Position numbers and translations under genes: made by a program. A DNA stretch of 56,180 nt from positions 1 through 56,180 of IMG/VR virus record IMGVR_UViG_3300028595_000015; one strand, given 5' to 3'. The notes beneath the pieces were generated by a model. It was not told the DNA's origin. It was given only the letters and a program-made list of their open reading frames with translations, and did not search any database. Below are positions 28,042 to 51,360 of the stretch, piece after piece (the stretch's first letter is position 1; the number at the start of each line of letters is the position of its first letter). This stretch comes from a virus. Its lineage: Duplodnaviria > Caudoviricetes.

Positions 28042-28070
28042 ACGCATAATTAACATACCTCTTTATAGAA
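28042..28070 (+). promoter_or_regulatory. 29-bp conserved motif copy 1 (putative phage promoter)
   Basis: ACGCATAATTAACATACCTCTTTATAGAA. Confidence 0.75.
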
Positions 28071-28103
28071 ATAACTATATATAATATAAGGAGGATATTA
28101 GTA

Positions 28104-28385
28104 ATGGTTAATGTTTTAAAAGATAAAATTTATTTATGGGATTTCCATAAGAACGAGTTGATTAATATGAACTATCATAGTTTATATTGTTGTAATCGTT
28201 TGGGTTGGGAACCAGTACTTAAAGATTTTGCTGAAAGCATTAAAGTTAGTAATGACGATTTAGATTTTATTACGGTTGAACAAAAAGAAAGAGTAGATGA
28301 ATACTATAGAAATAGAGAAGATTATGATATGACATATATACAAGTGGTCGATTATATACAGGCTTTAGATAAGGGTATTTTATAA
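28104..28385 (+). CDS. Cassette gene 1, hypothetical soluble protein
   Basis: Motif + AAGGAGG + ORF + hairpin/T tract at 28371-28398. Confidence 0.75.
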   Translation: MVNVLKDKIYLWDFHKNELINMNYHSLYCCNRLGWEPVLKDFAESIKVSNDDLDFITVEQKERVDEYYRNREDYDMTYIQVVDYIQALDKGIL

Positions 28386-28416
28386 TACTCTTTTTTTTAT
28401 TTTTGTTTAGGTAAAC

Positions 28417-28445
28417 ACGCATAATATGCATAGCTCTTTATAGAA
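28417..28445 (+). promoter_or_regulatory. 29-bp motif copy 2
   Basis: ACGCATAATATGCATAGCTCTTTATAGAA. Confidence 0.75.
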
Positions 28446-28465
28446 AATAAAAGGAGGAATTTTTA

Positions 28466-28660
28466 ATGAAATTGTTTTGGAAAATTGCTGGGGTTAGTAT
28501 CCTTGCTAGTATTCTTACGAATACAGCGGTGAACACTGCTAGTAGAATCAGAAGAAGTAAAATTGAAGATGATGACTATGAGGAAAAATTAAAAGAAAAG
28601 AGAGAAATGAAACGTCAACAAAAATTAGATAAGAAAAAATCTAAAAAAGTTGAGGAATAA
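28466..28660 (+). CDS. Cassette gene 2, small protein with N-terminal hydrophobic helix and basic tail
   Basis: Motif + SD; GAGGAA/TTCCTC hairpin at 28652-28677. Confidence 0.75.
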   Translation: MKLFWKIAGVSILASILTNTAVNTASRIRRSKIEDDDYEEKLKEKREMKRQQKLDKKKSKKVEE

Positions 28661-28708
28661 ACATTTCCTCTTTCTTTATATTAAAAAAAAGAAGGAGAAC
28701 TTAGAAAA

Positions 28709-28981
28709 ATGAAAGAAAAAAACAAAACAGAAGGAATTATAAACTTTAGAAAACAAAGAAGAAAATTCAGAGTAACATTCCTTGCCGAAGTATATTATGA
28801 GGATGGGAGTGAATCTTTAGTACCTATGAATCGTAATTGTATTATTGATGGTGTAAATAGAGGAGAGACAGAAACATTTGAACAATTGAGTAAGAAGCTG
28901 GAAGACCGTCTAGATGAGCTTTTACCAAATAATACATGTGTTAATTATATTCAGGACGCGGAATATGTTGGTGTTGCGTAA
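28709..28981 (+). CDS. Hypothetical protein
   Basis: SD AAGGAG; coupled to the next gene. Confidence 0.65.
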   Translation: MKEKNKTEGIINFRKQRRKFRVTFLAEVYYEDGSESLVPMNRNCIIDGVNRGETETFEQLSKKLEDRLDELLPNNTCVNYIQDAEYVGVA

Positions 28982-29451
28982 TGTTTAAGAAAAATTTAAA
29001 ATACAGAACGTTTAGCGTATATTCGGCAGTTGTTGGGGAAGAAATTGTAATAAAAAATGATATTTGGAAGGTTTTAGCAATAACTGGTGAGGAGATTATA
29101 AGCCATGGTTATGGAGGAACAATTAAAAAAGTGGTATATTGTGAGCATCAGTGTACTATATTAGAAAGAATGAGAGAAGAAATTAAAGACCTACAAGATA
29201 AAGTCCTTTTTATTGAAAAGGATATACCTAATCGTCCAGGGGTTCTTGAAAAACCTCCTTTAAGTATTTCGCCATTGTCTGAAGATGATGGAAAAGAACC
29301 CCGACGATTAAAAGCAAACTGTGGAGTTTGTGGAGCTATGTTATATGAGGCAGATAGTATTTATACATTCAAAGAGGTTTTTGACGTAGAAAGACCGTAT
29401 TGTTTTCACTGTGGTAACAGGATTCAGTTTAGAAATAGGATTGTAAAATAG
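28981..29451 (+). CDS. Hypothetical protein with C-terminal zinc ribbon
   Basis: CGVC...CFHCG. Confidence 0.65.
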   Translation: MFKKNLKYRTFSVYSAVVGEEIVIKNDIWKVLAITGEEIISHGYGGTIKKVVYCEHQCTILERMREEIKDLQDKVLFIEKDIPNRPGVLEKPPLSISPLSEDDGKEPRRLKANCGVCGAMLYEADSIYTFKEVFDVERPYCFHCGNRIQFRNRIVK

Positions 29452-29480
29452 TCGCATTAATTGCATACTCCTATATAGGA
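29452..29480 (+). promoter_or_regulatory. 29-bp motif copy 3 (overlaps the SD)
   Basis: TCGCATTAATTGCATACTCCTATATAGGA. Confidence 0.7.
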
Positions 29481-29489
29481 GGAGATATT

Positions 29490-29732
29490 ATGAAAATATT
29501 ATTTGGTTGGACTACCATATTTAGATGGAACCCTGTAACCAGAATTAAAAGATCAACAAAAGTAATAGACGCCATATATGAAGTATTAGTTATTGATGTT
29601 TTATTAGGTGCTATAACTGGATTAGCTAGAGCTTTTAGATGGTTATTCTGGGTAATGTGGACAATATTGGGAGTCGATTGGAAAAAAGTTTATTATAATA
29701 TTAAAGAAAAATTAGAGGCAGTTTTTACGTAG
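29490..29732 (+). CDS. Cassette gene 3, small membrane protein
   Basis: Hydrophobic, Trp-rich core; AGAGGC/GCCTCT hairpin + T tract at 29714-29744. Confidence 0.75.
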   Translation: MKILFGWTTIFRWNPVTRIKRSTKVIDAIYEVLVIDVLLGAITGLARAFRWLFWVMWTILGVDWKKVYYNIKEKLEAVFT

Positions 29733-29779
29733 CCTCTTCTTTTTCGAAGTTTAGGCAAAAAAATAGGAGGGATACGAAG

Positions 29780-30145
29780 ATGTCACAGAAACTTTATACA
29801 GTTGTATGTGTTTTTTATAACACAGATGGTATAGTTGAAAAAGATTTATATGAAGTTTTAAAAGATCTTCGTATAAATGACATTAGTGATTATATGAAAG
29901 TCGTATATGATCACGTTTATTCTGGTCAGGCTGTTCAGTACAAGATTAAATTAGTATATCGTGATATTTTAATAAATGAAGAAACTTCTAAATTCTATTC
30001 TAAAATAGAACCTTATTTTTTAGGGTATACCGCATATTTAGATTTAAAAGAAGTGGATAGAATGAATCGGATGACTATAGAAGCTAGATTAACAATGTCT
30101 GATTTTGATTTTAATTATATTTTTGGAGGTAAAAATGAGAAATAA
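29780..30145 (+). CDS. Hypothetical protein
   Basis: SD AGGAGG. Confidence 0.65.
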   Translation: MSQKLYTVVCVFYNTDGIVEKDLYEVLKDLRINDISDYMKVVYDHVYSGQAVQYKIKLVYRDILINEETSKFYSKIEPYFLGYTAYLDLKEVDRMNRMTIEARLTMSDFDFNYIFGGKNEK

Positions 30146-30371
30146 AAAAGTATTAATAGCTGGTGCAGTAGTTAGTTTAATAACAAGTTCTTTTATTGTT
30201 GGTTTTAGGGTTGGATTAAAAAGTTCTGAAAAAAATACGAAGTACGCAGGCGTTCTTAGCATAGCCCCCGATGAAAATGGCGATGATCTGTTATATGTAT
30301 CTTTAGATGAACATCCCAAAAATTTATACGGTCTATCGAACGTTGTATTTAAGGTTAATAAATTAGCATAA
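30135..30371 (+). CDS. Small membrane-anchored protein
   Basis: GGAGG then ATG 30135; N-terminal TM. Confidence 0.65.
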   Translation: MRNKKVLIAGAVVSLITSSFIVGFRVGLKSSEKNTKYAGVLSIAPDENGDDLLYVSLDEHPKNLYGLSNVVFKVNKLA

Positions 30372-30392
30372 TTTACATACTGTATAATAGGA
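30364..30392 (+). promoter_or_regulatory. 29-bp motif copy 4 (degenerate)
   Basis: TAGCATAATTTACATACTGTATAATAGGA. Confidence 0.6.
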
Positions 30393-30420
30393 AAAATACT
30401 TAAAAATAGGAGGAAAGAAA

Positions 30421-30987
30421 GTGAAAAAAGACATTAAGGATAATCTTAATAATTTAGTATTAGACGTTTCTAAAGATTATGGGACGGCTACACCAAATGA
30501 GAAAAATGATTTATTTAATCGAATTATTAAAGGTGTTAGTACTGTAAAAGAAGTTGAAGGTCAATCTGTTGAGAATTCAGTTAAACGTAAACAAGTTAAA
30601 CTAGAAGAAAGCAAACAAGAGTTAGAGCGAGATAAGTTAGAATTAGAGCGTAGTAAAGTGAATAATGATATTCGAAAAATAGGGCTTGAAGAGAGCAAAA
30701 TTAATTTTGAGATGAAAAGATTTGAAGCTACTATGAATAATGAAACTTTAAAACTAGAACTAGAGAATGCGAAATTCGGTTTTGAAAAACTAAAATACGA
30801 ACATGAATTATCGAAAGAGAAATCTGACAGACGTTACAATACTATCATAAAATGTATTGAGATTGGATTACCATTATTCGTATATGGAGGCCTGTCTATA
30901 CTATCGTTAAAAGCGATCTATAAAGATGATGAGAGAATTCCTAGTGATACTTGGAACTTCATTAAAGGTGTTTTGAGAAAAAAATAA
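30421..30987 (+). CDS. Cassette gene 4, coiled-coil protein with C-terminal TM
   Basis: LE..K heptads; IGLPLFVYGGLSILSL; hairpin AATAAGGGT/ACCCTTATT at 30983-31007. Confidence 0.75.
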   Translation: MKKDIKDNLNNLVLDVSKDYGTATPNEKNDLFNRIIKGVSTVKEVEGQSVENSVKRKQVKLEESKQELERDKLELERSKVNNDIRKIGLEESKINFEMKRFEATMNNETLKLELENAKFGFEKLKYEHELSKEKSDRRYNTIIKCIEIGLPLFVYGGLSILSLKAIYKDDERIPSDTWNFIKGVLRKK

Positions 30988-31034
30988 GGGTTACACATAC
31001 CCTTATTATTTATATTTAGAAGGAGGAACTTAGG

Positions 31035-31528: not shown

Positions 31529-31556
31529 CGCGTTTTTTACATATAATTATATAGAA
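31528..31556 (+). promoter_or_regulatory. 29-bp motif copy 5
   Basis: ACGCGTTTTTTACATATAATTATATAGAA. Confidence 0.75.
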
Positions 31557-31585
31557 TCATAAAACTATAAGGAGGATTTAAAGTT

Positions 31586-31951
31586 ATGAAAAAAGAAATT
31601 GTTAAAGGTTTATTAAAGAAAGCTGATGGTGTAATAGTAGCAACCTTAACCGGTTTAGCAACCGGCGGAGGATTGTATATTGCGTTAGTAGGCTTAGATA
31701 AAAGAGGACCTAGGGCTATTTCTAGAGCTGCAAATTTGGCTGTATATCATGGTTTAAAAGAAGGAGACATTCAGGAAGTCTTACTATTTGATTATGGCAT
31801 TCCATTTATCGAAGGTAAAACAGCTACTTGCGTTGCAATGTATAAAGTTAAAAAGATTAAAGATAACGGGAAATACAAAATGCAATATGTAGCCGAAAGA
31901 ACTTTTACAAAAGATGAAGTAGAAGATGCTGTAATGGTTGGATTTTTGTAA
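31586..31951 (+). CDS. Cassette gene 5, protein with N-terminal Gly-rich TM
   Basis: VIVATLTGLATGGGLYIALVGL; hairpin + T tract at 31950-31980. Confidence 0.75.
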   Translation: MKKEIVKGLLKKADGVIVATLTGLATGGGLYIALVGLDKRGPRAISRAANLAVYHGLKEGDIQEVLLFDYGIPFIEGKTATCVAMYKVKKIKDNGKYKMQYVAERTFTKDEVEDAVMVGFL

Positions 31952-31995
31952 GGAAGAGCGTTTGCTCTCCTTTTTATTTTTATAGGTATATTCTT

Positions 31996-32358: not shown

Positions 32359-32387
32359 ACGCAAATTATACATGCCCCTTTATAGAA
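32359..32387 (+). promoter_or_regulatory. 29-bp motif copy 6
   Basis: ACGCAAATTATACATGCCCCTTTATAGAA. Confidence 0.75.
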
Positions 32388-32417
32388 AGTATTAAAAATA
32401 AAAGGAGGATTTTTAGA

Positions 32418-32627
32418 ATGAATTCATTAACAAAAATTACATTAGTAACTGGGATTGCTAGTTTAGCAGTGTCAATTGGTTTTGGTATTATGGATGTACG
32501 TGATGCACGAAAGGGTAAGAAACGTATGCACAAGGAAGACATTAGTCAATTGGCTGCTGAGATTGCTTTATTCCAGACTGTAATTAACAGTTCGAATTCT
32601 GTAGAAGAAAAAGAACCTAAGAAATGA
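32418..32627 (+). CDS. Cassette gene 6, small membrane protein
   Basis: AAAGGAGG then ATG 32418; ITLVTGIASLAVSIGFGI; 13-bp stem at 32639-32674. Confidence 0.75.
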   Translation: MNSLTKITLVTGIASLAVSIGFGIMDVRDARKGKKRMHKEDISQLAAEIALFQTVINSSNSVEEKEPKK

Positions 32628-32709
32628 TATTTTTAATTAAGTATTAGTGTTATAAACAAACACTGATACTTTTTATTAATAAAAAAAATAAATTAGAAGG
32701 AGACTTAGA

Positions 32710-33576
32710 GTGAATATTAGAACTAAACAAAATTTTGCTATCACCCTAGCGTTATTAAGCGCTGTTGGAACTGTCGCTACTGGATATTTGACTAGGGAAG
32801 CTGCAAAGAAAGAAGTAAAAACTTATAATGGCGTGTTGCCTTATAAGAAAGGAAACTTTATAGATATAATTAAAATCTATAAATACCCATTATTAGTAGG
32901 TGGAGTAACTGTGTCATCTATAATCGGTTCTACTATTATGAGTAGAAAAGCAGAGGCATCTTTGCTTAGTATGGCGGTAATGGCCGACCAAGGATGGCGT
33001 CGATATAAACATCAGGTAAAAGATGCATTAGGCATTGAAGCTCATGAAAATATCGTAAAAGGAATTGCTAAGAAAAATCCTCCAAAAATAAAAAGTGGCG
33101 GGGATGATGATTTGACTCTCTATTACGATGAGATAATAGGATATTTTCAAGCAAAACCAGAAGATATGATGTATGCATATGCTACAATGAATGAGATGCT
33201 TACAACGTCTTTTGGAGATTCTTCCGTTAACAAGTATGGTGGTATAACATTGATGGATTTTGTTAGATTGTCTAAAGCAAGGTTAGTAAATGATGTTGAT
33301 GAAGAAATTTTAACTTCTTGGGGTTGGGGAATGGATTATCTAAATGAATGTTATGGTGAAATTTGGATACATATGGGATTCTCCCCTGAAAAAACAGATG
33401 ATGATGTTATAGACATTGTTGCGATAACTTGGTTAGAAGAACCAGTTTTAATAATGGATTATGATGATAATCTTGATGCTAAATTTTCTCATGAGGAAAC
33501 AAGAAAATTGGTTTTTAATGATTATATCGAAGATGGTGTTTTAAAAGATACTTCAGTAAAAAGAAATAAGAAATAG
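32710..33576 (+). CDS. Paralogous family protein A (DUF6353-like)
   Basis: Two hydrophobic N-terminal helices; shares architecture with 33581 and 35472. Confidence 0.6.
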   Translation: MNIRTKQNFAITLALLSAVGTVATGYLTREAAKKEVKTYNGVLPYKKGNFIDIIKIYKYPLLVGGVTVSSIIGSTIMSRKAEASLLSMAVMADQGWRRYKHQVKDALGIEAHENIVKGIAKKNPPKIKSGGDDDLTLYYDEIIGYFQAKPEDMMYAYATMNEMLTTSFGDSSVNKYGGITLMDFVRLSKARLVNDVDEEILTSWGWGMDYLNECYGEIWIHMGFSPEKTDDDVIDIVAITWLEEPVLIMDYDDNLDAKFSHEETRKLVFNDYIEDGVLKDTSVKRNKK

Positions 33577-33580: not shown

Positions 33581-34360
33581 GTGCCGAAAATGAAGAATAA
33601 CTTACTTAAATCAATAAAACCCTTTGTGGTTAGACATGAGCCTGAGGTTTTAATAACTATGGGTATTATGGGAATGATATTTTCAACCGTATGGGGTGTT
33701 AGAGCTACTGAAAAAGCGGTGCGAAAGTTGGATATTAAAAAGAAAGAGTTAGATAAGGACAAACTTACATTACCAGAAGTACTTAATGAAACATGGAAAT
33801 TATATTTACCTGTTGTTATAAGTACGGCGGTATCTATTCCTTGTATAATAGCAAGTAATCGGGTTTCGAATAACAGAAATGTTGCTTTGGCTGCTGCTTA
33901 TACTGTAACAGAAACAGCCTTACAAGAGTATCAGGATAAGACAAAAGAAGTTATTGGAGATTCTAATTATGAGAAGATTCAAGAAGCTTTATCGGACGAT
34001 AAAGTTAAAAATAATTACGCTCAAGGCAATGTTATTATGATAGGCGATGGTGACGCAATGTTTTATGAACCAATCTCTAATAGATATTTTAAATCTAACT
34101 GGAATAGAATATCTAAGGCTGCTAACGAATTAAACGCATCAGCAATAAGCGATATGTGTGGCGAAGTTACGCTTAATGATTGGTATGATATTTTAGGTTT
34201 ACCTCCGATTTATGGCGGAGATGGTAATGAACGTGGTTGGACCATTATTGATGGTAAGGATGGACTGATTGATATTTCAATCGATGCTGTTCTAACACCG
34301 AAGGACGAACCATGTGGCGCAATAAGATATAACGTATTGCCTAAACACCTTGGTAAGTAA
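33581..34360 (+). CDS. Paralogous family protein B (DUF6353-like)
   Basis: PEVL..G......AV.AT.KA, ALAAAYT, TLNDWYDILGL, GW. Confidence 0.65.
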   Translation: MPKMKNNLLKSIKPFVVRHEPEVLITMGIMGMIFSTVWGVRATEKAVRKLDIKKKELDKDKLTLPEVLNETWKLYLPVVISTAVSIPCIIASNRVSNNRNVALAAAYTVTETALQEYQDKTKEVIGDSNYEKIQEALSDDKVKNNYAQGNVIMIGDGDAMFYEPISNRYFKSNWNRISKAANELNASAISDMCGEVTLNDWYDILGLPPIYGGDGNERGWTIIDGKDGLIDISIDAVLTPKDEPCGAIRYNVLPKHLGK

Positions 34361-34490: not shown

Positions 34491-34519
34491 ACGCGTTTTT
34501 TACAAAGGTTATAATGAGG
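34491..34519 (+). promoter_or_regulatory. 29-bp motif copy 7 (degenerate)
   Basis: ACGCGTTTTTTACAAAGGTTATAATGAGG. Confidence 0.6.
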
Positions 34520-34561
34520 GAAACCTTATTTTATAAAAATAATGAAGAAGGAGATTTAATT

Positions 34562-34753
34562 ATGGACAAAAATGAAGTTTTAGCAGAAGTTGCAGAAGCA
34601 ACGGTAGAACAAGCTAGTATTGTTAAGAAAGCTGCTCCTGTAGTATTACCAGCGGTAGTATTATTTGGATTAGGATTTTTAGGATTCAGAGTTTGGAAAA
34701 ACCGTAAAGCTAAAAAGAACGTTTTAGAAGTAAATCCACCTGTCAGTGAATAG
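34562..34753 (+). CDS. Cassette gene 7, small single-pass membrane protein
   Basis: AAGGAG then ATG 34562; VVLPAVVLFGLGFLGF followed by a basic tail; 13-bp stem at 34775-34816. Confidence 0.75.
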   Translation: MDKNEVLAEVAEATVEQASIVKKAAPVVLPAVVLFGLGFLGFRVWKNRKAKKNVLEVNPPVSE

Positions 34754-34848
34754 ATAGTTGGGCCCCTTAAGGATTATAAAGGATGGTATTGAAAACACCG
34801 TCCTTTATATTTTTTTAACAAAATTAAATATATTAGATAGGAGTTATT

Positions 34849-35460
34849 ATGAATAGATTTGAAGGTAATTCCAATGCGAATAAAAAAGAACCTGAGAAAA
34901 GGAAAAAATTAGATACGGTTACAACTAATGTTGCTGTAAAAAAAGAATCTGAGTTTAAGAAGTTTAAACAGAATTTTTTCGCTGAGGATGCAAAAACAGT
35001 TAAAGGGCAAGTGTTTACTGGTGTTATTATACCTGGGATACAGAGGTTAATAACTGATATGGTTAAGACTGGTATAGATGTTCTTATCTATGGAGGAAGA
35101 GCCAAAGATAGTAAAAGCAGAAGTAGTCATATAAGTTATTCTGGGTATTATCAAGATAGAAATAACAATTATAACTATAACAAAATACCGGGCGGAACAT
35201 CATATGCTAGAAGAGATATATTCTCTTTTAATGAGGTTTCTTTTTATGATAGAGTAGAAGCTGAAGAGGTATTAATTAATTTAAATGAACAAATAGAATC
35301 ATACGGAATGGTTTCGGTTGCTGATTTTTATGACATGATAGGTCAATCAGCACCTTATACGGCAAATAAGTATGGTTGGAGAGATTTACGAGATGTTGCG
35401 ATAATTAGTGTGAGAGGTGGATATTCCATAGACTTGCCTAAGGCACATCCATTAGATTAG
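34849..35460 (+). CDS. Conserved-type phage protein sharing the C-terminal motif of the paralogous family
   Basis: YG.VSVADFYDMIG.......YGW.DL. Confidence 0.65.
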   Translation: MNRFEGNSNANKKEPEKRKKLDTVTTNVAVKKESEFKKFKQNFFAEDAKTVKGQVFTGVIIPGIQRLITDMVKTGIDVLIYGGRAKDSKSRSSHISYSGYYQDRNNNYNYNKIPGGTSYARRDIFSFNEVSFYDRVEAEEVLINLNEQIESYGMVSVADFYDMIGQSAPYTANKYGWRDLRDVAIISVRGGYSIDLPKAHPLD

Positions 35461-35471
35461 GAGGATTTTAT

Positions 35472-36458
35472 ATGAACAAATTTGGAATGATATTTAACAG
35501 AGCTAGTTTTTTAGTAAAGAAAAAATCACCAGAATTATTGGTGATAAGTAGTATTGTAGCAGCTGCAGGAAGTATTGTTTTGGCAATTAAAGCTACACCT
35601 AAAGCACAAAATATTCTATCGGACGCTAATAAAAATATTGATCGTATCAAAAGTGACATGACTGATTACAATAAGTTAACAAACGACCAATACTCTGTTA
35701 GTTTAGGCAAAAAAGAATTAACGAAAGAATATGCTTTAACTGTTGTTAAATTAGGTAAAGTTTATGCACCGACTATTATTGGTTTTGGGTTAACTGTTGG
35801 AGGAATCCTTGGTTCTCATAAAATTATGAAGGGTCGTCAAGTTGCCTTAGCAGCTGCCTATACAACTTTAGAAAATGGTTATCGTTCTTATAGAGAGCGT
35901 GTTGCTGATAAGGTTGGAGAAAAAGTTGAGAATGATATTTTCAGAAATGTTTATTCTGAAAAGAAAGATGTTATAGAAATTGATAAGGATGGTAATGAGG
36001 TTGTGAAATCTAAGAATGTAAAATGTCCTCATGTAGAAGCGGACAAGGACTTTACAGTTATATTTGATCATAATGCTCCTGATTGGATGAGGGACACAAA
36101 TGCCACCTTAAACCTTTTGGCAATGAAACAGAAATACCTAAACCAAAAATTGGCTTATTCTGGAGCTTTATTCTTACATGAGGTTTATGAGGAAATAGGC
36201 ATTGATATTGCAACATTAGGTGATCGTAAGGCCCAGGCTTCTAGAGTTTTGGGATGGTTATATGACCCGGAAGATCCTACAAGAGATAGCTTTATTTCTT
36301 TAGGGTTATTCGATCAAATGGGGAATAAAAATGAGTATGCAATGAATGCTCTTAGAAGTAACGCACAAGAATTAATTCTTGAGTTTAATGTGGATGGAGA
36401 TATTTTAACTGGAGATAACGGTAATAAAATGTTCGCCAACTATAGAAAGGTGATTTAA
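35472..36458 (+). CDS. Paralogous family protein C (DUF6353-like)
   Basis: KK.SPELL, KATPKA, ALAAAYT, YR.RV, LFLHEVYEEIG, LGW, L.FNVDG. Confidence 0.7.
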   Translation: MNKFGMIFNRASFLVKKKSPELLVISSIVAAAGSIVLAIKATPKAQNILSDANKNIDRIKSDMTDYNKLTNDQYSVSLGKKELTKEYALTVVKLGKVYAPTIIGFGLTVGGILGSHKIMKGRQVALAAAYTTLENGYRSYRERVADKVGEKVENDIFRNVYSEKKDVIEIDKDGNEVVKSKNVKCPHVEADKDFTVIFDHNAPDWMRDTNATLNLLAMKQKYLNQKLAYSGALFLHEVYEEIGIDIATLGDRKAQASRVLGWLYDPEDPTRDSFISLGLFDQMGNKNEYAMNALRSNAQELILEFNVDGDILTGDNGNKMFANYRKVI

Positions 36459-36459
36459 T

Positions 36460-37095
36460 ATGACTAAAAAAATTATTAATTCATTAGTAATTGTGTTGGT
36501 GGGCCTCTCTGGTTATAAAATTGGAGAGGTTTTAACTTCCAGAAAATATGAGAAGCGAATAAATAAGGAAATAAATGATATTCGGTCTTATTATAAAATT
36601 CGTTTGAATAAACTTTACGGAGTTAAAGAAGAAAAAGAGGAAAAAGAGGAAAAAGAAATCGTAAACAATAAAAGAATTACCGATGATTTAAAGAATCCAA
36701 AAAAGAATGAGAAAGACTCTATACGTACTGATGCAATTGATTATTCTAAACCATACAGAACTAATACGCCAGATAGAGTCGTTGGCGAACCTGGTGAAAC
36801 AAAAGTCGCTATTGAAGAAGATTATGTGGACACGACAAAACCTCATATAATTACTCCTGAAGAGTATGGTCTTAGTGAATATCAGACAGTTACACTATTC
36901 TATACGGTTGATAAGGTTCTAACGGACGACGATTTTAATCAAATTGATAACGTTGGAATAGTTGGAGGGTATGTGTTATTAGACCAAATTGGTATTTACG
37001 ACGCAGATTGTCTTTATATTCGCGATATTAATAAAGGTATCGATTATGAGATACTTCTAGAAGAGAGGGAGTTTTCTAAGCTTCAACAGCTTTAA
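36460..37095 (+). CDS. Membrane-anchored hypothetical protein
   Basis: N-terminal TM, charged linker, PHIITPEEY...LYIR.....DYEI C-terminal domain. Confidence 0.65.
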   Translation: MTKKIINSLVIVLVGLSGYKIGEVLTSRKYEKRINKEINDIRSYYKIRLNKLYGVKEEKEEKEEKEIVNNKRITDDLKNPKKNEKDSIRTDAIDYSKPYRTNTPDRVVGEPGETKVAIEEDYVDTTKPHIITPEEYGLSEYQTVTLFYTVDKVLTDDDFNQIDNVGIVGGYVLLDQIGIYDADCLYIRDINKGIDYEILLEEREFSKLQQL

Positions 37096-37108
37096 AACTC
37101 ATTAATAG

Positions 37109-37651: not shown

Positions 37652-37671
37652 AGAAAAGGAGAATTTAGATT

Positions 37672-37851
37672 ATGATTAGATTACTATTGGAAAGACACCC
37701 TTTTTTAACTGGAGTAGCGGTTGGAATGTTTGGTAGTCGCGCACTTAGAAGAAAATTGAATACGTTTCTGGATAAAAACGTTACTTTCATAAGCGTTAAA
37801 ATGGAAAAACCAGATACTGAAAAAGAATCTAATGAAATAAAAGAAGATTAA
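37672..37851 (+). CDS. 59-aa protein below the ORF-track cutoff
   Basis: SD AAAGGAG; MIRLLLERHPFLTGVAVGMFGSRAL...; fills the gap exactly. Confidence 0.6.
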   Translation: MIRLLLERHPFLTGVAVGMFGSRALRRKLNTFLDKNVTFISVKMEKPDTEKESNEIKED

Positions 37852-41709: not shown

Positions 41710-41735
41710 AAAAAATAAAAAGGAGAACTTAAAAA

Positions 41736-42329
41736 ATGAGTAATGTTATTGAACAAGGTTTAGAAAAAGTTCGAGACACCCATTTTATATTTAATGAGCG
41801 TGGTGGATTCGAGATAAGAAATGCTTATATTTTCTGGACAAATTTCAGAGGAGAAAGAGACCAATTTGGGAATGACGCAAGAAATTTTAATGTTGCCGTT
41901 CCTGAAGAAGTTGGGGTTGAGCTTTTAAAAAGAGGTTGGAGAGTAAGAGAACGTGCCTCTTATGATGATGAAAGTAGAGTCTTATATTTCATCAATATTA
42001 AAGTACGAATGGAGAGTAAAAATCCTCCAATTATTAGTTTATATTCTGAGTTTAGAGGTAAAAGAACAAAAAGAGCATTAGATATTAATACTATCGGAGA
42101 ACTTGATAGATTAGATTTGATGCAGTGTGACTTATCAGTAAATGCTTATGAATCACCTATGTATCCTGGTAAAATAACTGGATATTTAGGCAAATTGAAT
42201 GCTATTCAAACACCTAACATTGAGTTTGGTGGAAAGTATGACGATTGGTTAGACGAGGAGCACGATTGTTTAGCGGATGGCTCTTGTACATTAGAAGAGT
42301 GGACAGAGATGAATAAGAAAGATGAGTAA
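41736..42329 (+). CDS. Putative single-stranded DNA-binding protein
   Basis: Follows the polymerase; aromatic beta-rich core (NFRG....N..RNF) and an acidic tail. Confidence 0.55.
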   Translation: MSNVIEQGLEKVRDTHFIFNERGGFEIRNAYIFWTNFRGERDQFGNDARNFNVAVPEEVGVELLKRGWRVRERASYDDESRVLYFINIKVRMESKNPPIISLYSEFRGKRTKRALDINTIGELDRLDLMQCDLSVNAYESPMYPGKITGYLGKLNAIQTPNIEFGGKYDDWLDEEHDCLADGSCTLEEWTEMNKKDE

Positions 42330-42579
42330 CGAAAAAATTATATTTGACGACGAAGAGGTTGAAAAATACCTCACCGTCGCTGAAGCAGACATACTTCACG
42401 TACTACATCAAAAAATTATGGATTGTAAAAGGGACAGTATGGATATTCCAAAATTGATTAAAGACCGCGTTGGAAAAATGGTAAATCAAAAAGGGCAATA
42501 CTTACTTAACTGTGGATACAATTCTTTAGAGGTTATTGATATTGATCAATCTAATCTTAAAATAACTATAAATGACTAA
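42322..42579 (+). CDS. Hypothetical protein
   Basis: Coupled ORF. Confidence 0.55.
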   Translation: MSNEKIIFDDEEVEKYLTVAEADILHVLHQKIMDCKRDSMDIPKLIKDRVGKMVNQKGQYLLNCGYNSLEVIDIDQSNLKITIND

Positions 42580-42599
42580 AAAGTTGGGAGGTAACTACT

Positions 42600-42929
42600 T
42601 TGCAGCAGGACAAACTTTACTTATTTGAAAGTAGTAAATTAGAAATACTTAAGAAGCATGGTAATCTTGTATTATCCTTAAAGACTTTTAAAAAGAGTTT
42701 GAGGTATATGGGAGAAGAGATATTACAAATAAAAACTAAAAAGATTTTAAGAGGTACGCCTGATAAAATGGGCGAAGACCAAAAGAAACAATATGATGAG
42801 TTAGTTAATTTAGTACTCGTCGAATTAGAAGCTGTTACTGGTTTTAAAAAATTAGTTTGTAGATTTTTACCAGTTGAGGAAGATGCATCAATGAATGATC
42901 AACCTTGTGTAATTATCGAACAAGCTTAA
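42600..42929 (+). CDS. Hypothetical protein
   Basis: GGAGG + TTG start. Confidence 0.6.
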   Translation: MQQDKLYLFESSKLEILKKHGNLVLSLKTFKKSLRYMGEEILQIKTKKILRGTPDKMGEDQKKQYDELVNLVLVELEAVTGFKKLVCRFLPVEEDASMNDQPCVIIEQA

Positions 42930-42942
42930 AAGAGGTGTATTT

Positions 42943-44253
42943 ATGGCAGGAGTACAGTTAAGAGATTATCAATACGATGCGGTAATGAAAATGCGGAATG
43001 GTTGTATTTTAGCTGGTGGTGTTGGGGTTGGTAAATCCCGCACCGTGCTTGCCTATTATTATATTCTTAATGGGGGCGAAGTAAATACGCCTACTTATAT
43101 GAAAATGCATCACTCCCCGAAAGATATTTACATAATAACTACCGCATTAAAAAGAGATAAAAAAGAGTGGGAATTAGAATTACTTAATTTTAAAATGTCA
43201 CCCGATCCGAAAGAATCCAGGTATAGACATAATATAGTAATCGATAGTTGGAATAATATAAAAAAGTATGTGGATGTTAAAGATGCTTTTTTTATATTTG
43301 ATGAGCAGCGTGTTATAGGTTATGGAACTTGGACAAAATCTTTTTTGGCAATAGCAAAAAATAATGAGTGGGTATTACTATCAGCAACACCTGGAGATAC
43401 ATGGTCTGATTATATGCCGGTGTTTATAGCTAATGGTTGGTATAAAAATAAAACAGATTTTAATAGAAAGCATGCCGTATTCTCTAGATGGACAAAGTAT
43501 CCAAAAATAGAAAGATGGGTAAACGAAGGTCGACTAATACGTTTAAGGAAACATATTTTGATAGAGATGAATATGATTCGGTCGACGGTAAGAAATCACG
43601 AATATATAACAGTTGATTATGATAGGGTATTATATGCGGAGACTGCTAAAAAAAGATGGAATCCATATCTTGATAGACCTATAGAAAATGCTACGGAGTT
43701 TTGTTATACTCTTAGAAAGATTGTTAACAGCGATCCATCAAGACTTTATGCACTAATGGATATTTTAAAGAAGAAAAAAAAAGCTATAATTTTTTATAAT
43801 TTTGATTATGAGTTAGAGTTATTGCGTAAGCTTTTTGGTGATAGTCACTCTATTACAGAAAAAAACAAAGAGAAAGATGATCCTATAATTAAAGAAGATA
43901 TTCCATGGTTGCACCTTGTTGATGAGCGTATAGCTAAGGCCGAATGGAATGGTCATAGACATGAAGATGTCCCGACTGATGATTATTGGGCGTATTTAGT
44001 TCAATATACGGCTGGGTCTGAGGGGTGGAATTGTATAACCACTGACACTATAATATTCTTTTCTATGACTTATTCTTTCAGAGTGCTTGAACAGGCTAGC
44101 GGACGTATTGATAGAATGAACACTGATTATACGGATTTATATTACTTTCATTTTAGAAGTAATAGTAAGATTGATTTAGCAATAAGACAGGCGCAGAAAA
44201 GAAAGAAAAGATTTAATGAAAAAAATTTCGCGCCATTATTCGAGGAGGAATAA
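42943..44253 (+). CDS. Superfamily 2 (SNF2-like) helicase
   Basis: LRDYQ, GVGVGKS, FIFDEQ, LSATPG, SEGWN, QASGRIDR. Confidence 0.9.
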   Translation: MAGVQLRDYQYDAVMKMRNGCILAGGVGVGKSRTVLAYYYILNGGEVNTPTYMKMHHSPKDIYIITTALKRDKKEWELELLNFKMSPDPKESRYRHNIVIDSWNNIKKYVDVKDAFFIFDEQRVIGYGTWTKSFLAIAKNNEWVLLSATPGDTWSDYMPVFIANGWYKNKTDFNRKHAVFSRWTKYPKIERWVNEGRLIRLRKHILIEMNMIRSTVRNHEYITVDYDRVLYAETAKKRWNPYLDRPIENATEFCYTLRKIVNSDPSRLYALMDILKKKKKAIIFYNFDYELELLRKLFGDSHSITEKNKEKDDPIIKEDIPWLHLVDERIAKAEWNGHRHEDVPTDDYWAYLVQYTAGSEGWNCITTDTIIFFSMTYSFRVLEQASGRIDRMNTDYTDLYYFHFRSNSKIDLAIRQAQKRKKRFNEKNFAPLFEEE

Positions 44254-44260
44254 AAGTATT

Positions 44261-44770
44261 ATGAAAAATTTTATTAATGAAGTAGGGAAGTATATATCCA
44301 AACACAAAGTACTATATTATATCCTTAATTTTACTTGGGGGTTGCCATTAACGATTGTTGGATATTTTCTAATGTTGGTGTTAAGTCCTTGGGCAAAGAT
44401 TAAGAAATATGGATATATTTACTACATCGAGATCCAATCAAATGCAAGTTGGGGACTTAGTATGGGTACCACATTTATTACAGGTTTAAGAGGTAGTTCA
44501 AGCTATGGGTTAAAAGAACATGAGTTTGGACACACTGTACAGAATGCTATATTCGGACCTTTTATGATTTTTATTGTGTCTATTCCAAGTTTTATTAGAT
44601 GTAATTATAGGAGTTTTATTAGAACAATAAATCCTAATTTAGTAAAAGGCGCTTATTATGATATTTGGTTTGAATCAACTGCGTCTACAATTGGAGAATG
44701 GTATGAGTCAATTAGGTATATAATGGCAGATGTTAAAACAACAAAAGAAGCAATGAATAGATTCAAATAA
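44261..44770 (+). CDS. Membrane protein with an HExxH motif (putative zinc metallopeptidase)
   Basis: TM segments; EHEFGHTVQ; downstream WFE..A; ATG 44261 after GAGGAGG. Confidence 0.65.
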   Translation: MKNFINEVGKYISKHKVLYYILNFTWGLPLTIVGYFLMLVLSPWAKIKKYGYIYYIEIQSNASWGLSMGTTFITGLRGSSSYGLKEHEFGHTVQNAIFGPFMIFIVSIPSFIRCNYRSFIRTINPNLVKGAYYDIWFESTASTIGEWYESIRYIMADVKTTKEAMNRFK

Positions 44771-44795: not shown

Positions 44796-44824
44796 GCGCA
44801 AATTATACATACTCCTTTATAAGG
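44796..44824 (+). promoter_or_regulatory. 29-bp motif copy 8 (overlaps the SD)
   Basis: GCGCAAATTATACATACTCCTTTATAAGG. Confidence 0.72.
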
Positions 44825-44836
44825 AGGAATGATAAA

Positions 44837-45178
44837 ATGTTAGTAATTTATATTATTGGATCAAGCAGGTTTAGTGTTGTAAAAGAAGATTTATACAATT
44901 TTTTAAACGGGATTGATAGTGTTGCTCCACTAGCGGTGGGCATTAGTGAAATATATAAGAATTCACTAAATGACAAAAATTATGAGGAGTTACATTACTT
45001 AGAAGATAGAAGTATGGACGAGGCTAATTTTGTTATATTGGTTGATTCTGATTATACGGATTCAAAAGTTCATGTTGGTGAAGACACTCAACGAGAGTTA
45101 AATTATTGTGTTGAAAACAATATTACTGTTTTGAAAAATGATATTAATATTTTAAAAACTTTATTGAAGAAGGGTTAA
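44837..45178 (+). CDS. Cassette gene 8, nucleoside 2-deoxyribosyltransferase-like (flavodoxin-fold) protein
   Basis: VIYIIGS...MDEANFVILV...VGEDTQRELNYC...ITV; 12-bp stem at 45166-45200. Confidence 0.55.
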   Translation: MLVIYIIGSSRFSVVKEDLYNFLNGIDSVAPLAVGISEIYKNSLNDKNYEELHYLEDRSMDEANFVILVDSDYTDSKVHVGEDTQRELNYCVENNITVLKNDINILKTLLKKG

Positions 45179-45228
45179 CAATGACTCTTCTTCTTTATTT
45201 TATATTTTAGAAGGAGGAACTTAGAAAA

Positions 45229-46182
45229 ATGAAAAAAGTATTTATAACAAAAACGCCCAGTGCTGACACACGTTCTGCTACTGGATTAATGTCTGTTGAG
45301 GAAGTAACACGTGATACTAATCAGCATATTAAAGATGTTAAGAGTATTATATATTCTTTGGCAGAGGAAATGATGTTAAAAGCATCTAATCATGACCATA
45401 CTAAATTAGAAAATATTGAAGAGTTTACAGAGGCTCTTAATAAAGGTTTTATTGGTGAACAAAAAATCAAAGATAGCCTTTGGTGGACAAAACATTTGGT
45501 TGAAAGACACCATTTAAATGATAGTGTTCCTGCAGATGTAACGTTATTAGATGTTATTGAGATGATTGCGGACGGTGTTGCTGCTGGTAAAGCTCGTACA
45601 GGAGATGTTTATGATATAGAGTTACCTAGTGATATTCTACAAGAAGCTTTGATAAACACTCAGCATTACATAATGGAAAACGCTGAAATAGTAGGTAATG
45701 ACAGTGACGAATGTTGTGAATCTAGTGGATTGGAAAGTGTAAAAAGCGTATTCGAACGTTATAGAGCAATTAACGAAGTAAAATATGATAACCCGGATGC
45801 TTTCGACGTATACTATCAAGATCCAGATACTAGAGAAATAATCAAAGGGCCTAATATATTACCTCATGAACCAGATTACTTTCTTATAGACCATTTGATA
45901 TATATTGGTAATAAGAAAACTTATGATAAGTTTAGCGGTGAATTAGGAATTGATGAGTTTTATTCTTACACTTATAGTCGTTCTAGGGTAGCTATTGTAG
46001 GTAAAAATAGTAAGACTGGAGAATGGTTTGGATGGAGTCATAGAGGATATGGAAAATTTTACCCTGGATATGTCGTAAAAGAGGGTAGTATGTTGTCTAA
46101 AAAGTTTGTAGCTGGATATTCTCCTCAGACCGACGAACAGCTTAGATTGGTCGCAGAAGTATTTGCGGATTTGATGGATTAG
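45229..46182 (+). CDS. HD-like (DUF5662-type) domain fused to an unknown C-terminal domain
   Basis: H..., HDHTKL, H...RHH, DVIEMIAD. Confidence 0.6.
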   Translation: MKKVFITKTPSADTRSATGLMSVEEVTRDTNQHIKDVKSIIYSLAEEMMLKASNHDHTKLENIEEFTEALNKGFIGEQKIKDSLWWTKHLVERHHLNDSVPADVTLLDVIEMIADGVAAGKARTGDVYDIELPSDILQEALINTQHYIMENAEIVGNDSDECCESSGLESVKSVFERYRAINEVKYDNPDAFDVYYQDPDTREIIKGPNILPHEPDYFLIDHLIYIGNKKTYDKFSGELGIDEFYSYTYSRSRVAIVGKNSKTGEWFGWSHRGYGKFYPGYVVKEGSMLSKKFVAGYSPQTDEQLRLVAEVFADLMD

Positions 46183-49794: not shown

Positions 49795-49795
49795 C

Positions 49796-49824
49796 ACGCG
49801 TTTAAAACATAGTCATTTATAGAA
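49796..49824 (+). promoter_or_regulatory. 29-bp motif copy 9
   Basis: ACGCGTTTAAAACATAGTCATTTATAGAA. Confidence 0.8.
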
Positions 49825-49853
49825 AAACTAAAAACTAAAGGAGGAATTTTATA

Positions 49854-50093
49854 ATGAGTTTGAATGAAAAATTAATTATTGGAGGATTCGCGATCTTATC
49901 GTTTTCTACTTTGGGTTTATGGCAAAGAACAAGAGAGCATAGAGGGGCTATATCAGTCCATCAAGAAGCTATCGAGTTACTTGCTGATAACCAGGTAGAT
50001 ACTGTAAGTGCATTAAGAGAAAGCGCGAATGTTCATACAATTCATGAGAGTAGAATCAAATCATTAGAGAATTTGAAAAAAAAAAGTTTATAG
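49854..50093 (+). CDS. Cassette gene 9, N-terminal TM plus coiled coil
   Basis: LIIGGFAILSFSTLGLW; hairpin + T tract at 50095-50137. Confidence 0.75.
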   Translation: MSLNEKLIIGGFAILSFSTLGLWQRTREHRGAISVHQEAIELLADNQVDTVSALRESANVHTIHESRIKSLENLKKKSL

Positions 50094-50137
50094 TAAGGAG
50101 GAGTAGGATATACATATATCCTTTCCTTTTGTTTTTT

Positions 50138-50166
50138 ACGCGTTTAAAACATAGCGCATTATAGAA
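50138..50166 (+). promoter_or_regulatory. 29-bp motif copy 10
   Basis: ACGCGTTTAAAACATAGCGCATTATAGAA. Confidence 0.8.
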
Positions 50167-50186
50167 AATAAAAGGAGGATTTTATA

Positions 50187-50528
50187 ATGAAAGAAGTATT
50201 TAAAATTGTAGATGTTAGTTTAGCAGATCCGAATAAGTCAATATATGTTAAATATATTAACGGTGAGATTTCTAAGAACGCTTTGGAGTTTGTTAGTAGT
50301 GAAGCAGCAGATAAGTCAATGGGGGTTTTAACAGCCACTGTTGGAGATTGGGTTGAAACAGCTACTAGGATATCTGTAGTAAAAGGAGCTAAGAAAGGAT
50401 TTAGCGTTGGTATGGGAGTTGGTGTATTATTGACAATGACGGCTTTAGTTGGCACATCTGTATTTTTAACTTACAGAGATGTTAAAAGGGACGAAAGTCA
50501 TCCTAATATTAAAGTTAAGGGTAAATAA
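50187..50528 (+). CDS. Cassette gene 10, C-terminal GxxxG TM protein
   Basis: GFSVGMGVGVLLTMTALVG; AAGGGTA/TACCCTT hairpin at 50517-50554. Confidence 0.75.
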   Translation: MKEVFKIVDVSLADPNKSIYVKYINGEISKNALEFVSSEAADKSMGVLTATVGDWVETATRISVVKGAKKGFSVGMGVGVLLTMTALVGTSVFLTYRDVKRDESHPNIKVKGK

Positions 50529-50554
50529 CATATACCCTTTTCTTTTTTTTTTTT

Positions 50555-50583
50555 ACGCGTTAAAAACATAGTCATTTATAGAA
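50555..50583 (+). promoter_or_regulatory. 29-bp motif copy 11
   Basis: ACGCGTTAAAAACATAGTCATTTATAGAA. Confidence 0.8.
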
Positions 50584-50601
50584 AATAAAGGAGGATATTT
50601 A

Positions 50602-50913
50602 ATGAAAAATTTACTTGGAAAAGGTGTTTTAATATTGGGATATACTGTCGGTATTGGTTATGTGTTTAAGATTTGCACTGCGTTTAGCGATGTAGCGTTA
50701 GTTAATAAGCATTTGAAAAAATCAAAAGGGATGACCACCGATGAAATAATAACAATACTAAATGCAAGAATGAGTAGTAAGGAATTAGATGAATATTTTC
50801 GTATGAAAGCAAAAGAGCTTAGAGGTAGAAAACTTAAAGATGGAGAACTTAAAAAACTTTTAAGATATGATTCAATCGTATCAGAGTGTTATAAGAGTGT
50901 TCCAGTTAGTTAA
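50602..50913 (+). CDS. Cassette gene 11, membrane-anchored protein (paralog of 50990)
   Basis: GKGV..LGY, KAKELRGRKL, KKLLRYDSI; AAGAGC/GCTCTT hairpin at 50912-50940. Confidence 0.78.
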   Translation: MKNLLGKGVLILGYTVGIGYVFKICTAFSDVALVNKHLKKSKGMTTDEIITILNARMSSKELDEYFRMKAKELRGRKLKDGELKKLLRYDSIVSECYKSVPVS

Positions 50914-50941
50914 GAGCTACATATGCTCTTTTCTTTTTTTT

Positions 50942-50970
50942 ACGCGTTAAAAACATAGCTCTTTATAGAA
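50942..50970 (+). promoter_or_regulatory. 29-bp motif copy 12
   Basis: ACGCGTTAAAAACATAGCTCTTTATAGAA. Confidence 0.8.
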
Positions 50971-50989
50971 AAACAAAGGAGGATTTTAT

Positions 50990-51298
50990 ATGAACAAATT
51001 TGGTAAAGGTGTTACACTTTTGGGATATTTTATTGGTATGAATTTCTTAATTGATGTTTGCAAAGATGTTAGAGACGTTATGTTAGTCACTAGATATTTG
51101 ATGAACTCAAAAGGAATAACCAAAGAAATGATCACAAAAATAAGTGACGCAAAAATGGAAGATGGTCAAATGAATGATTACTATAAGTTGAAAGCAAGAG
51201 AGCTTAGAGGTAGAAGACTTACTAATAAGGAATCTAAAAAATTATTAAAGTATGATTCGATCATATTAGGTAGTTTTGAAGATATTCCAATTAGTTAA
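50990..51298 (+). CDS. Cassette gene 12, membrane-anchored protein (paralog of 50602)
   Basis: GKGV.LLGY, KARELRGRRL, KKLLKYDSI; AAGAGC/GCTCTT hairpin at 51297-51326. Confidence 0.78.
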   Translation: MNKFGKGVTLLGYFIGMNFLIDVCKDVRDVMLVTRYLMNSKGITKEMITKISDAKMEDGQMNDYYKLKARELRGRRLTNKESKKLLKYDSIILGSFEDIPIS

Positions 51299-51360
51299 GA
51301 GCTACTAATGCTCTTTTCTTTTTTTTAGGTAAACACTTTATATTTACATATACTTTTCGT

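Follow-up and report, generated by a model that had tools for sequence, protein, structure and literature searches.

Twelve small-gene units of a siphovirus genome share a strand-specific motif, a candidate promoter of the phage's own two-barrel RNA polymerase

One short motif recurs in front of a series of small genes in a phage genome. The stretch of DNA analysed here (the window) is a complete siphovirus record from IMG/VR of 56,180 bp, with an estimated completeness of 93% and a GC content of approximately 33%. All of its long open reading frames (ORFs) lie on the + strand. The original prediction described twelve cassettes in this window, each made of the motif, a Shine-Dalgarno (SD) site, one small ORF and a terminator, and took them for monocistronic, immediate-early units that encode membrane effectors and are exchanged like morons. 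We confirmed that the anatomy of the units is real and regular: each combines a promoter-like signal of its own with a single small ORF and a terminator (Table 1). Comparison of sequences leads us to consider it probable that the twelve units form a regulon of the phage's own two-barrel RNA polymerase, with the motif as its promoter.

Table 1. Positions of the units, motif copies and other features in the window
Feature	Position	Strand	Details
Motif starts, at most two mismatches	28043, 28418, 29453, 30365, 31529, 32360, 44797, 49797, 50139, 50556, 50943, 51695	+	
Unit 1	28043-28392	+	motif 28043-28068; ORF 28104-28385, 93 aa, no hydrophobic segment; terminator 28371-28392
Unit 2	28418-28670	+	motif 28418-28443; ORF 28466-28660, 64 aa, weak N-terminal hydrophobic segment; terminator 28652-28670
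Unit 3	29453-29737	+	motif 29453-29478, 2 nt past upstream stop; ORF 29490-29732, 80 aa, hydrophobic; terminator 29714-29737
Unit 4	30365-31007	+	motif 30365-30390, overlaps upstream stop; ORF 30421-30987, 188 aa; terminator 30983-31007
Unit 5	31529-31972	+	motif 31529-31554; ORF 31586-31951, 121 aa, hydrophobic; terminator 31950-31972
Unit 6	32360-32671	+	motif 32360-32385; ORF 32418-32627, 69 aa, N-terminal transmembrane-like segment; terminator 32639-32671
Unit 7	34492-34809	+	variant motif 34492-34517; ORF 34562-34753, 63 aa, transmembrane-like; terminator 34775-34809
Unit 8	44797-45193	+	motif 44797-44822; ORF 44837-45178, 113 aa, no hydrophobic segment; terminator 45166-45193
Unit 9	49797-50128	+	motif 49797-49822; ORF 49854-50093, 79 aa, sub-threshold hydrophobic segment; terminator 50098-50128
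Unit 10	50139-50545	+	motif 50139-50164; ORF 50187-50528, 113 aa, C-terminal transmembrane-like segment; terminator 50511-50545
Unit 11	50556-50934	+	motif 50556-50581; ORF 50602-50913, 103 aa, N-terminal hydrophobic segment; terminator 50908-50934
Unit 12	50943-51319	+	motif 50943-50968; ORF 50990-51298, 102 aa; terminator 51293-51319
13th motif copy	51695-51720	+	approximately 80 nt upstream of the VRR-Nuc/exonuclease/RNA polymerase operon
VRR-Nuc-like nuclease / Cas4-type exonuclease / 989-aa RNA polymerase operon	51799-56010	+	right end of the window
Predicted single-chain two-barrel RNA polymerase, 989 aa	52755-55724	+	candidate reader of the motif
Structural genes	1-27 kb	+	terminase, portal, protease/capsid, 1821-aa tape measure, tail genes
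Holin-like gene	27217-27699	+	
Strong terminator	27981-28025	+	-18.1 kcal/mol; end of the structural and lysis block, shortly before unit 1
Primase/polymerase, 1281 aa	37864-41709	+	
Annealing protein	41736-42329	+	
Helicase	42943-44253	+	

The motif is 26 nt long and consists of a CGC box, an A/T run, ACAT, 5-6 nt and TTATAG. Its conserved positions, judged by information content, are the CGC, ACAT and TTATAG boxes, which lie approximately one helical turn apart. There were 16 matches to the 26-nt pattern with up to three mismatches, while 2.05 were expected from shuffled sequences, and 12 matches with up to two mismatches, all on the + strand. A scan of the window with a position weight matrix gave 12 forward and 0 reverse sites; since the matrix was built from the same sites, the scan has value as evidence only through its strand asymmetry and score gap. 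The copy at 34492 is a variant with a spacing 3 nt shorter and the end TATAATGA. It was missed by both the 26-nt pattern and the matrix; in its variant form it was the sole match without mismatches. The twelve copies of the original prediction comprise 11 canonical ones and this variant, and a thirteenth copy, also canonical, lies at 51695.

Copies of the motif either lie between genes or extend into the final codons of the gene upstream, and an AGGAG-type SD site lies 0-30 nt past its 3' end. Motifs had been said often to abut the upstream stop codon, which we observed for those at 29453, 30365 (with overlap), 31529, 32360 and 44797. Often the motif stands directly after the T run of the previous terminator. 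The T run itself was rejected as a part of the motif, as copies that do not follow a terminator lack it. We compared the window with three relatives, g1, g2 and g3 (G001, G002 and G004), the polymerases of which are approximately 72% identical to that of the window. No motif copy was found in the structural-gene half of any of these four genomes.

Counted from CGC to the end of TATAG, the copies fall into two spacing classes, of 26 nt and 23 nt. The 26-nt class occurs in the window clade and in phage FP_oengus, and the 23-nt class in phages 1706, HotFries and Mudcat and in the window's copy at 34492. The short-spacing variants end in TATAAT. Both classes can be present in one genome, and they replace each other at orthologous positions: the copy at 32360 (unit 6) is long, and its ortholog in g3 is short and ends in TATAAT. 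Short-spacing copies in this clade were seen at 34492 in the window and at 39978 and 42154 in g3.

Behind each of the twelve copies named in the original prediction there was indeed a strong SD site, exactly one ORF (63-188 aa) and then a hairpin with a T-rich tract. Our own fold scan placed a stable hairpin directly followed by a T tract at or near the stop codon in 12/12 units (-6.3 to -15.0 kcal/mol), each within a few bases of the position given before; a stricter scan retained 7/12. Plausible terminators followed only approximately 3 of the 37 other genes, namely at 27715 and 33581 (scan) and at 49583 (T11 run, by eye), with four further weak matches judged spurious (12/12 against 3/37, Fisher p = 5e-9).

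We found the motif in all nine genomes or contigs examined, all of which bear the polymerase (the window, g1, g2, g3, FP_oengus, 1706, HotFries, Mudcat and the metagenomic contig L012). Each of the three relatives has 10-11 forward and 0 reverse copies. Faecalibacterium phage FP_oengus has 10 forward copies (CGCG, an A-rich run, CAG, then CTTTATGG), Lactococcus phage 1706 has 11 (TTTTACAT, then CTATAGTAG), Streptomyces phage HotFries has 5, and Arthrobacter phage Mudcat has 7 true copies among 9 regular-expression matches (CGCGTAAA, ACA, GGGCTATAATG). Reverse copies number 0 in each of these phages. In L012 there is one copy. The architecture common to all is a CGC box, an A/T run, ACA and TATAG or TATAAT, found on the coding strand only, and the hosts of the distant phages that carry it span two phyla. 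The VRR-Nuc/exonuclease/polymerase operon is preceded by a copy in the window, g1, g2, g3, FP_oengus and Mudcat. Further, orthologous units retain their putative promoters at approximately 70% protein identity. The unit anatomy also recurs: 10 of the 11 copies listed for FP_oengus and approximately 8 of 11 in 1706 precede a single small ORF and then a hairpin with a T tract, and many products of these units are small and hydrophobic, including those of unannotated micro-ORFs. That phages from hosts of two bacterial phyla have retained this signal alongside one signature enzyme is best explained if the signal is the promoter of that enzyme.

One part of the 1706 record (24731-25380, L026) holds two motif copies, short unannotated ORFs for hydrophobic peptides and T-rich terminators. 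The public annotation of 1706 seems to miss these units.

The candidate enzyme is the 989-aa product of the operon behind the thirteenth copy. It falls into phrog_4291 (E = 0), which PHROGs annotates as 'RNA-dependent RNA polymerase'; the Pfam model RdRP gave 15.2 bits, below its cut-off, and a PDB sequence search returned chance-level matches only. The catalytic motif GADFDGD lies at residues 516-522, and SGAD.DGD is invariant across 41 aligned sequences of the family. An AlphaFold (AF2) model of the protein (pLDDT 84, pTM 0.73) combines this DxDGD loop with a double-psi beta-barrel fold. Foldseek matched the model with QDE-1 (E = 2e-8, probability 1.0), plant RDR2, P74 gp62, P32 gp64 and gp96; the E-values for QDE-1, RDR2 and the P23-45-like Thermus phage polymerases ranged from 2e-8 to 1e-5. 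Residues from approximately 950 to 987 match Pfam HTH_23 and Sigma70_r4_2, and sigma models of the extracytoplasmic function (ECF) type match as well. By its modelled structure, the protein is a two-barrel (QDE-1/YonO-like) RNA polymerase with a C-terminal helix-turn-helix (HTH) that resembles sigma region 4. The label 'YonO-like' follows the PHROG annotation and the available text of the preprint 10.1101/842583. Members of the family are numerous: a search at E <= 0.001 gave 2411 cluster representatives.

We considered whether the tape measure might include a second, virion-type polymerase, as in P23-45, and rejected this. There is one DFDGD in the three forward frames, and the N-terminus of the tape measure looks ordinary.

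The original prediction saw the units as monocistronic, and insulation of this kind does not agree with the order of the genes. This order is promoter-like motif, small ORF, terminator and then a motif-free block of 1-11 genes. Seven such blocks begin 20-45 nt past a unit terminator (at 28709, 29780, 31035, 31996, 32710, 34849 and 45229). The 10-kb replication block (34849-44770), which follows the terminator of unit 7, holds all core replication genes and has no promoter of its own. Since the blocks are promoterless, they need read-through, and so the terminators would have to leak or be overridden. On this arrangement of genes, the terminators probably act as attenuators rather than as complete stops. 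From the putative promoter at 51695 there is no terminator until 27981-28025, past the structural and lysis genes. This putative promoter may therefore also serve late transcription once the ends of the genome are joined.

A hidden promoter between terminator and next block was rejected, as there is room for only 20-45 nt, and these hold a conserved extended ribosome-binding site. This site, GAAGGAG(0-2 nt)ACTTAG, has 4 copies in the window, while 0 were expected (at 28691, 31019, 32696 and 45210). They stand directly after unit terminators and open promoterless blocks, and similar segments are present in the relatives.

We propose that the phage's two-barrel polymerase, with its built-in sigma-4-like HTH, recognises the motif. 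Transcription that starts at or just after TATAG would give a leader of 20-35 nt, a strong SD site and one small, usually membrane-anchored protein. The hairpin and T tract would end most transcripts, so that the small protein is made in excess. Leakage past the terminators would feed the following 1-11 genes, including those for the primase/polymerase and the helicase. In this way attenuators would set the expression ratios along one long co-directional array. The thirteenth copy would drive the polymerase operon, which would continue over the cos junction into the structural genes with no terminator in between. The design would be ancestral to the whole supergroup of polymerase-bearing siphoviruses, with some units as core genes, and units at three hot spots (behind the lysis genes, behind the helicase and in front of the polymerase operon) would be duplicated, lost or replaced.

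Several points weigh against this proposal. The position weight matrix is circular for the sites from which it was built. The occurrence of two spacing classes at orthologous positions is awkward for a single rigid mode of recognition. The Foldseek TM-scores are low (0.22-0.27) despite the probability of 1.0. As the polymerase operon itself carries the motif, the first polymerase needs another route. This could be a host promoter in 51326-51690 or a protein carried in the virion, neither of which was identified; the best sigma-70-like candidate there is TTGCCT-17-TATGAT at 51562-51590 (9/12 match). The short-spacing variants end in TATAAT, the host -10 consensus, so that a redirected host polymerase is possible. 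Finally, the discussion of the YonO paper, in its available text, states that the flap domain governs hairpin-dependent termination in multisubunit polymerases (PMC5467207). A minimal polymerase that lacks the flap domain might ignore hairpins, and the hairpins would then have another role.

Could the motif instead be an early promoter for the unmodified host RNA polymerase, with the units transcribed immediately, before any phage protein is made? The units do belong to the non-structural part of the genome, their SD sites are very strong, the short variants end in the host -10 sequence, the terminators are of the hairpin and T-tract type that bacterial polymerase obeys, and the polymerase operon needs a first round of transcription. 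However, by inspection no copy of the motif has a -35 element 16-18 nt upstream of TATAG or TATAAT, and sigma-70-like sites are not enriched in the region (86 against 92.5 expected; 72 against 62.8 expected). The best-conserved boxes, CGC and ACA, have no role in sigma-70 promoters, and the same boxes are kept in phages of Lactococcus, Faecalibacterium, Streptomyces and Arthrobacter. We regard this explanation as unlikely. The term 'immediate-early', which the original prediction applied to the units, is not supported: the motif has no sigma-70 layout, the phage's own polymerase operon carries it, and no second polymerase of virion type was found.

The matches of the C-terminal domain to Sigma70_r4_2 and ECF sigma models also bring in the host core polymerase, redirected by a phage factor. 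That factor might be a sigma-like protein or appropriator, or the HTH end of the 989-aa protein. Transcription would then not be the work of the 989-aa enzyme itself. The TATAAT variants would suit the host -10 element, and intrinsic terminators would suit a bacterial polymerase. Yet the invariant SGAD.DGD and the two-barrel fold make it very unlikely that the 989-aa protein is a DNA-binding factor only. Further, we found no separate sigma factor among the 50 window proteins scanned against Pfam or PHROGs, a scan that left out small ORFs of the structural region. We consider redirection of the host enzyme quite unlikely, and recognition by the phage's own polymerase remains the reading that we favour.

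The claim of exchangeable cassettes is supported for some units and not for the class. ORFs 28104, 44837, 49854, 50602 and 50990 have no homologue in g1-g3. ORFs 28466, 30421, 32418 and 34562 are syntenic, together with their putative promoters, in all three relatives (tblastn and clustering), and 29490, 31586 and 50187 are patchy. Among the patchy ones, 29490 (unit 3) has a weak tblastn match in g1 only, with units similar by eye at the same place in g2 and g3. ORF 31586 (unit 5) has an ortholog with its putative promoter in g2 only, and unit 10 clusters with the units that immediately precede the polymerase operon of g1 and g2. The ortholog of unit 7 is found in g1-g3, with the same variant motif in g3. 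Unit 8 has a unique ORF, yet its promoter-like segment is 80-89% identical in nucleotides to the co-located one in g1, g2 and g3. Units 11 and 12 (50556-50942 and 50943-51326) are whole-unit tandem duplicates of each other, with 91% identity in the 5' part, 74% in the ORF and 88% in the 3' part.

The variability of unit genes did not significantly exceed that of other small genes. Shared with all three relatives were 4/12 unit genes and 22/37 other genes (p = 0.18), the latter including 7/17 other small genes. Absent from all relatives were 5/12 units and 5/37 other genes (p = 0.05), while for small genes alone the value was 4/17 (not significant). Variation was concentrated in the three hot spots named above. 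A moron is one additional gene, equipped with a promoter and a terminator, that separates two genes which are neighbours in relatives. Of the units, 5/12 are absent from g1-g3, 4/12 are present in all three and 3/12 are patchy, in relatives that are only approximately 70% identical in protein. The units of 28104 and 44837 are moron-like. Unlike morons, many units are conserved core genes, and their promoter would be part of the phage's own lytic programme.

Such turnover bears on the idea that motif and terminator serve mainly as homology for gain, loss and shuffling of cassettes, as in an integron without an integrase, with control of expression secondary. The whole-unit duplication of units 11 and 12 fits this idea. 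In units 9-12 the 5' segments are 77-91% identical, while unrelated ORFs stand at a background of 51-60%. In variable regions the only nucleotide similarity to g1-g3 consists of islands of 40-95 nt over the T run, motif and SD site. After the helicase the promoter-like segment is kept, while the ORFs and the number of units differ (1, 4, 2 and 2 in the four genomes). The decayed motif copy described below would fit as well. Functional constraint on promoters would by itself explain the conserved islands, however, and four units are stably syntenic in all relatives. Non-unit genes vary about as much, and the closest relatives are too distant for breakpoints to be placed at the level of single bases. 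Integron cassettes are promoterless, carry attC sites and are moved by the integron integrase. The analogy fails because of the first of these properties: each window unit has its own promoter-like motif, and no attC-like imperfect palindrome was seen. We think it distinctly doubtful that recombination is the main function. A broader version of the polymerase reading is quite possible, and we offer it tentatively: the motif would be the promoter for a very widespread family of single-chain two-barrel polymerases that carry their own sigma-4-like recognition domain. The HTH would read the CGC box, and the enzyme would melt the DNA and start at TATAG or TATAAT; a flexible linker would accommodate the two spacing classes. 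The units would be the regulon of this enzyme, and their shared ends would also feed duplication and replacement of small membrane effectors.

The decayed copy lies at 51326-51360. It retains the AGGTAAACAC upstream flank of units 1 and 2 and has lost the CGC and TATAG boxes. It may be what is left of a unit that has disappeared.

The motif is repeated, conserved and strand-specific with three boxes approximately one helical turn apart, as an operator for a phage repressor or activator might be, but this role, or that of a signal for RNA processing or stability, is hardly credible, given that by inspection the motif has neither dyad symmetry nor hairpin potential, that it always stands just upstream of an SD site and often right after a terminator, where a new transcript must begin, and that a different repeat, TTGTGTCA, looks like a true operator or iteron set.

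This other repeat belongs to the 370-nt non-coding region between unit 12 and the thirteenth copy (51326-51700), which holds TTGTGTCA / TGACAC repeats in both orientations. The stretch 51370-51607 contains 7 of the 8 copies of the repeat in the window, and two TGACA half-sites lie directly upstream of the putative promoter at 51695. From 51590 onward the non-coding region is 74-77% identical in g1 and g2. Judged by their layout, the repeats are probably an operator or iteron set that controls the polymerase operon, or a replication origin.

We also examined the products of the twelve units. With the Kyte-Doolittle scale (19-residue window, threshold 1.6), a hydrophobic segment was present in 8/12 products and in 13/37 other genes (p = 0.09). 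A 17-residue window also picks 28466 (1.57), 49854 (1.86) and 50990 (1.71), while 28104 and 44837 remain negative. On this crude scale, the earlier count of ten products out of twelve with a hydrophobic helix is reasonable. Pfam matched 0/10 unit products scanned (50602 and 50990 were outside the scan), and PHROGs gave two weak matches among the same number, both to families without assigned function; that of 32418 is phrog_3913. The 188-aa product of 30421 consists of a coiled coil and a conserved C-terminal hydrophobic region. It has 16 homologues, in which the C-terminal 40 residues are almost invariant, and the ESM Atlas returned unnamed clusters and generic helical matches only. Our guess is that the small products serve membrane-directed takeover of the host, exclusion or the timing of lysis.

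Two relatives share a conserved 21-aa ORF (g1, L014:10001-10066; g3, 54933-54998), which has its own motif, SD site and terminator. With these features it is likely a real micro-protein.

Two groups of neighbouring genes deserve mention. Three paralogous membrane-anchored proteins of phrog_2152 (32710-33576, 33581-34360 and 35472-36458) form a conserved core beside the replication genes, and their counterparts in FP_oengus are annotated as DUF6353. The gene at 45229-46182, directly after the terminator of unit 8, encodes a 317-aa protein and is a candidate anti-defence gene. Its product matched Pfam Tad6, the Type I Thoeris inhibitor (E = 6e-12, 46 bits, cut-off 27), and also DUF5662; a homologue, covering only the N-terminal half, was found in g3.

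By protein similarity the phage is placed in a supergroup with 1706, FP_oengus and phages of Arthrobacter and Streptomyces. In tblastn, proteins of the window were 38-55% identical to those of Lactococcus phage 1706, Faecalibacterium phage FP_oengus and approximately 200 phages of Arthrobacter, Gordonia and Streptomyces. This supergroup is the one treated in 10.1101/842583, according to the available part of that preprint. A megablast search of phage records for near-identical relatives gave no match, and a scan of IMG/VR for the exact motif gave 0 matches. From protein-seeded scans of IMG/VR and JGI metagenomes we obtained only short contigs or relatives with approximately 72% protein identity. 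The window had 0 matches in Rfam at gathering thresholds and 0 tRNAs by ARAGORN. The two ends of the window (56011-56180 and 1-184) form a G/C-rich inverted-repeat region that is continuous in the relatives. As the sequence of the relatives is unbroken across both ends, the record ends at or near a cos-like site, and once the genome is circular or concatemeric the polymerase operon stands immediately before the structural genes. There is no terminator between this operon and the first structural genes.

The only paper that we found on the polymerase of this supergroup is 10.1101/842583, the available text of which calls the enzyme 'putative' and never mentions a promoter. Our full-text literature search, which lacked most subscription journals and the original 1706 paper, found no description of these promoters. 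If the broader version of our reading is true, it gives the first promoter consensus for this polymerase lineage and, with it, orthogonal expression parts in a natural set. RNA polymerases of the single-chain two-barrel type are seen as models of the enzyme from which transcription began. The comparison yields a testable consensus, conserved from Lactococcus to Streptomyces phages, for which there are cultivable systems. Further, a repeated design of promoter, small membrane protein and leaky terminator would organise the non-structural half of these genomes. It would account for many unannotated micro-ORFs, and it points to a large set of small membrane proteins that have no assigned function.

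How does this arrangement compare with known systems? Phages of the T7 group repeat one promoter of 20-30 nt approximately 10-17 times on one strand, with a TATA-type box followed by a purine start; the reader is a phage polymerase, and the gene for it is the first to be expressed. Unlike in that group, the polymerase of the window has an unrelated fold, of the two-barrel and not of the Pol I-like type, its gene itself stands behind the motif, and there are many intrinsic terminators instead of one main terminator.

The nearest functional analogy to the units is the module for host takeover in SPO1, a Bacillus phage in which early genes use host sigma-A promoters. According to the available text of PMC6873191, this module is a dense battery of small genes in many short operons, with the promoters and ribosome-binding sites of highly expressed genes; the genes are expressed early in infection, and several of the products are toxic to the host. 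Unlike in SPO1, the putative promoter in the window is not sigma-70-like, and the units are scattered in the replication region, not placed in a terminal repeat.

For YonO, from the Bacillus prophage SPbeta, the promoter sequence is undetermined and one start site has been mapped, as stated in the available part of PMC5467207. The enzyme of the window is predicted to be, like YonO, a single-polypeptide polymerase with a DxDGD loop that transcribes phage genes, and the terminator-free run from 51695 through the polymerase operon into the structural genes resembles the YonO system as far as that source describes it. Unlike there, the window has 13 candidate promoters, mostly before small non-structural genes.

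In Thermus phage P23-45, which offers a precedent, each of the two-barrel polymerases (gp96 in the virion and the non-virion gp64) has its own conserved promoter motif, mapped by sequencing of transcription start sites (PMC10770324, available text). The polymerase of the window belongs to a different subfamily, closest to QDE-1, with approximately 12-16% identity in structural alignments. Moreover, the window has a single polymerase gene, not fused to the tape measure, with a predicted sigma-4-like HTH at the C-terminus, and its candidate promoters are known from sequence alone. Nevertheless, its model matches the structures of P74 gp62, P32 gp64 and gp96. As in P23-45, to the extent that the same source covers it, a phage two-barrel polymerase would go together with a strongly conserved motif that precedes many small early genes, relatives with the enzyme also have the motif, and terminators, which in P23-45 were mapped, are many.

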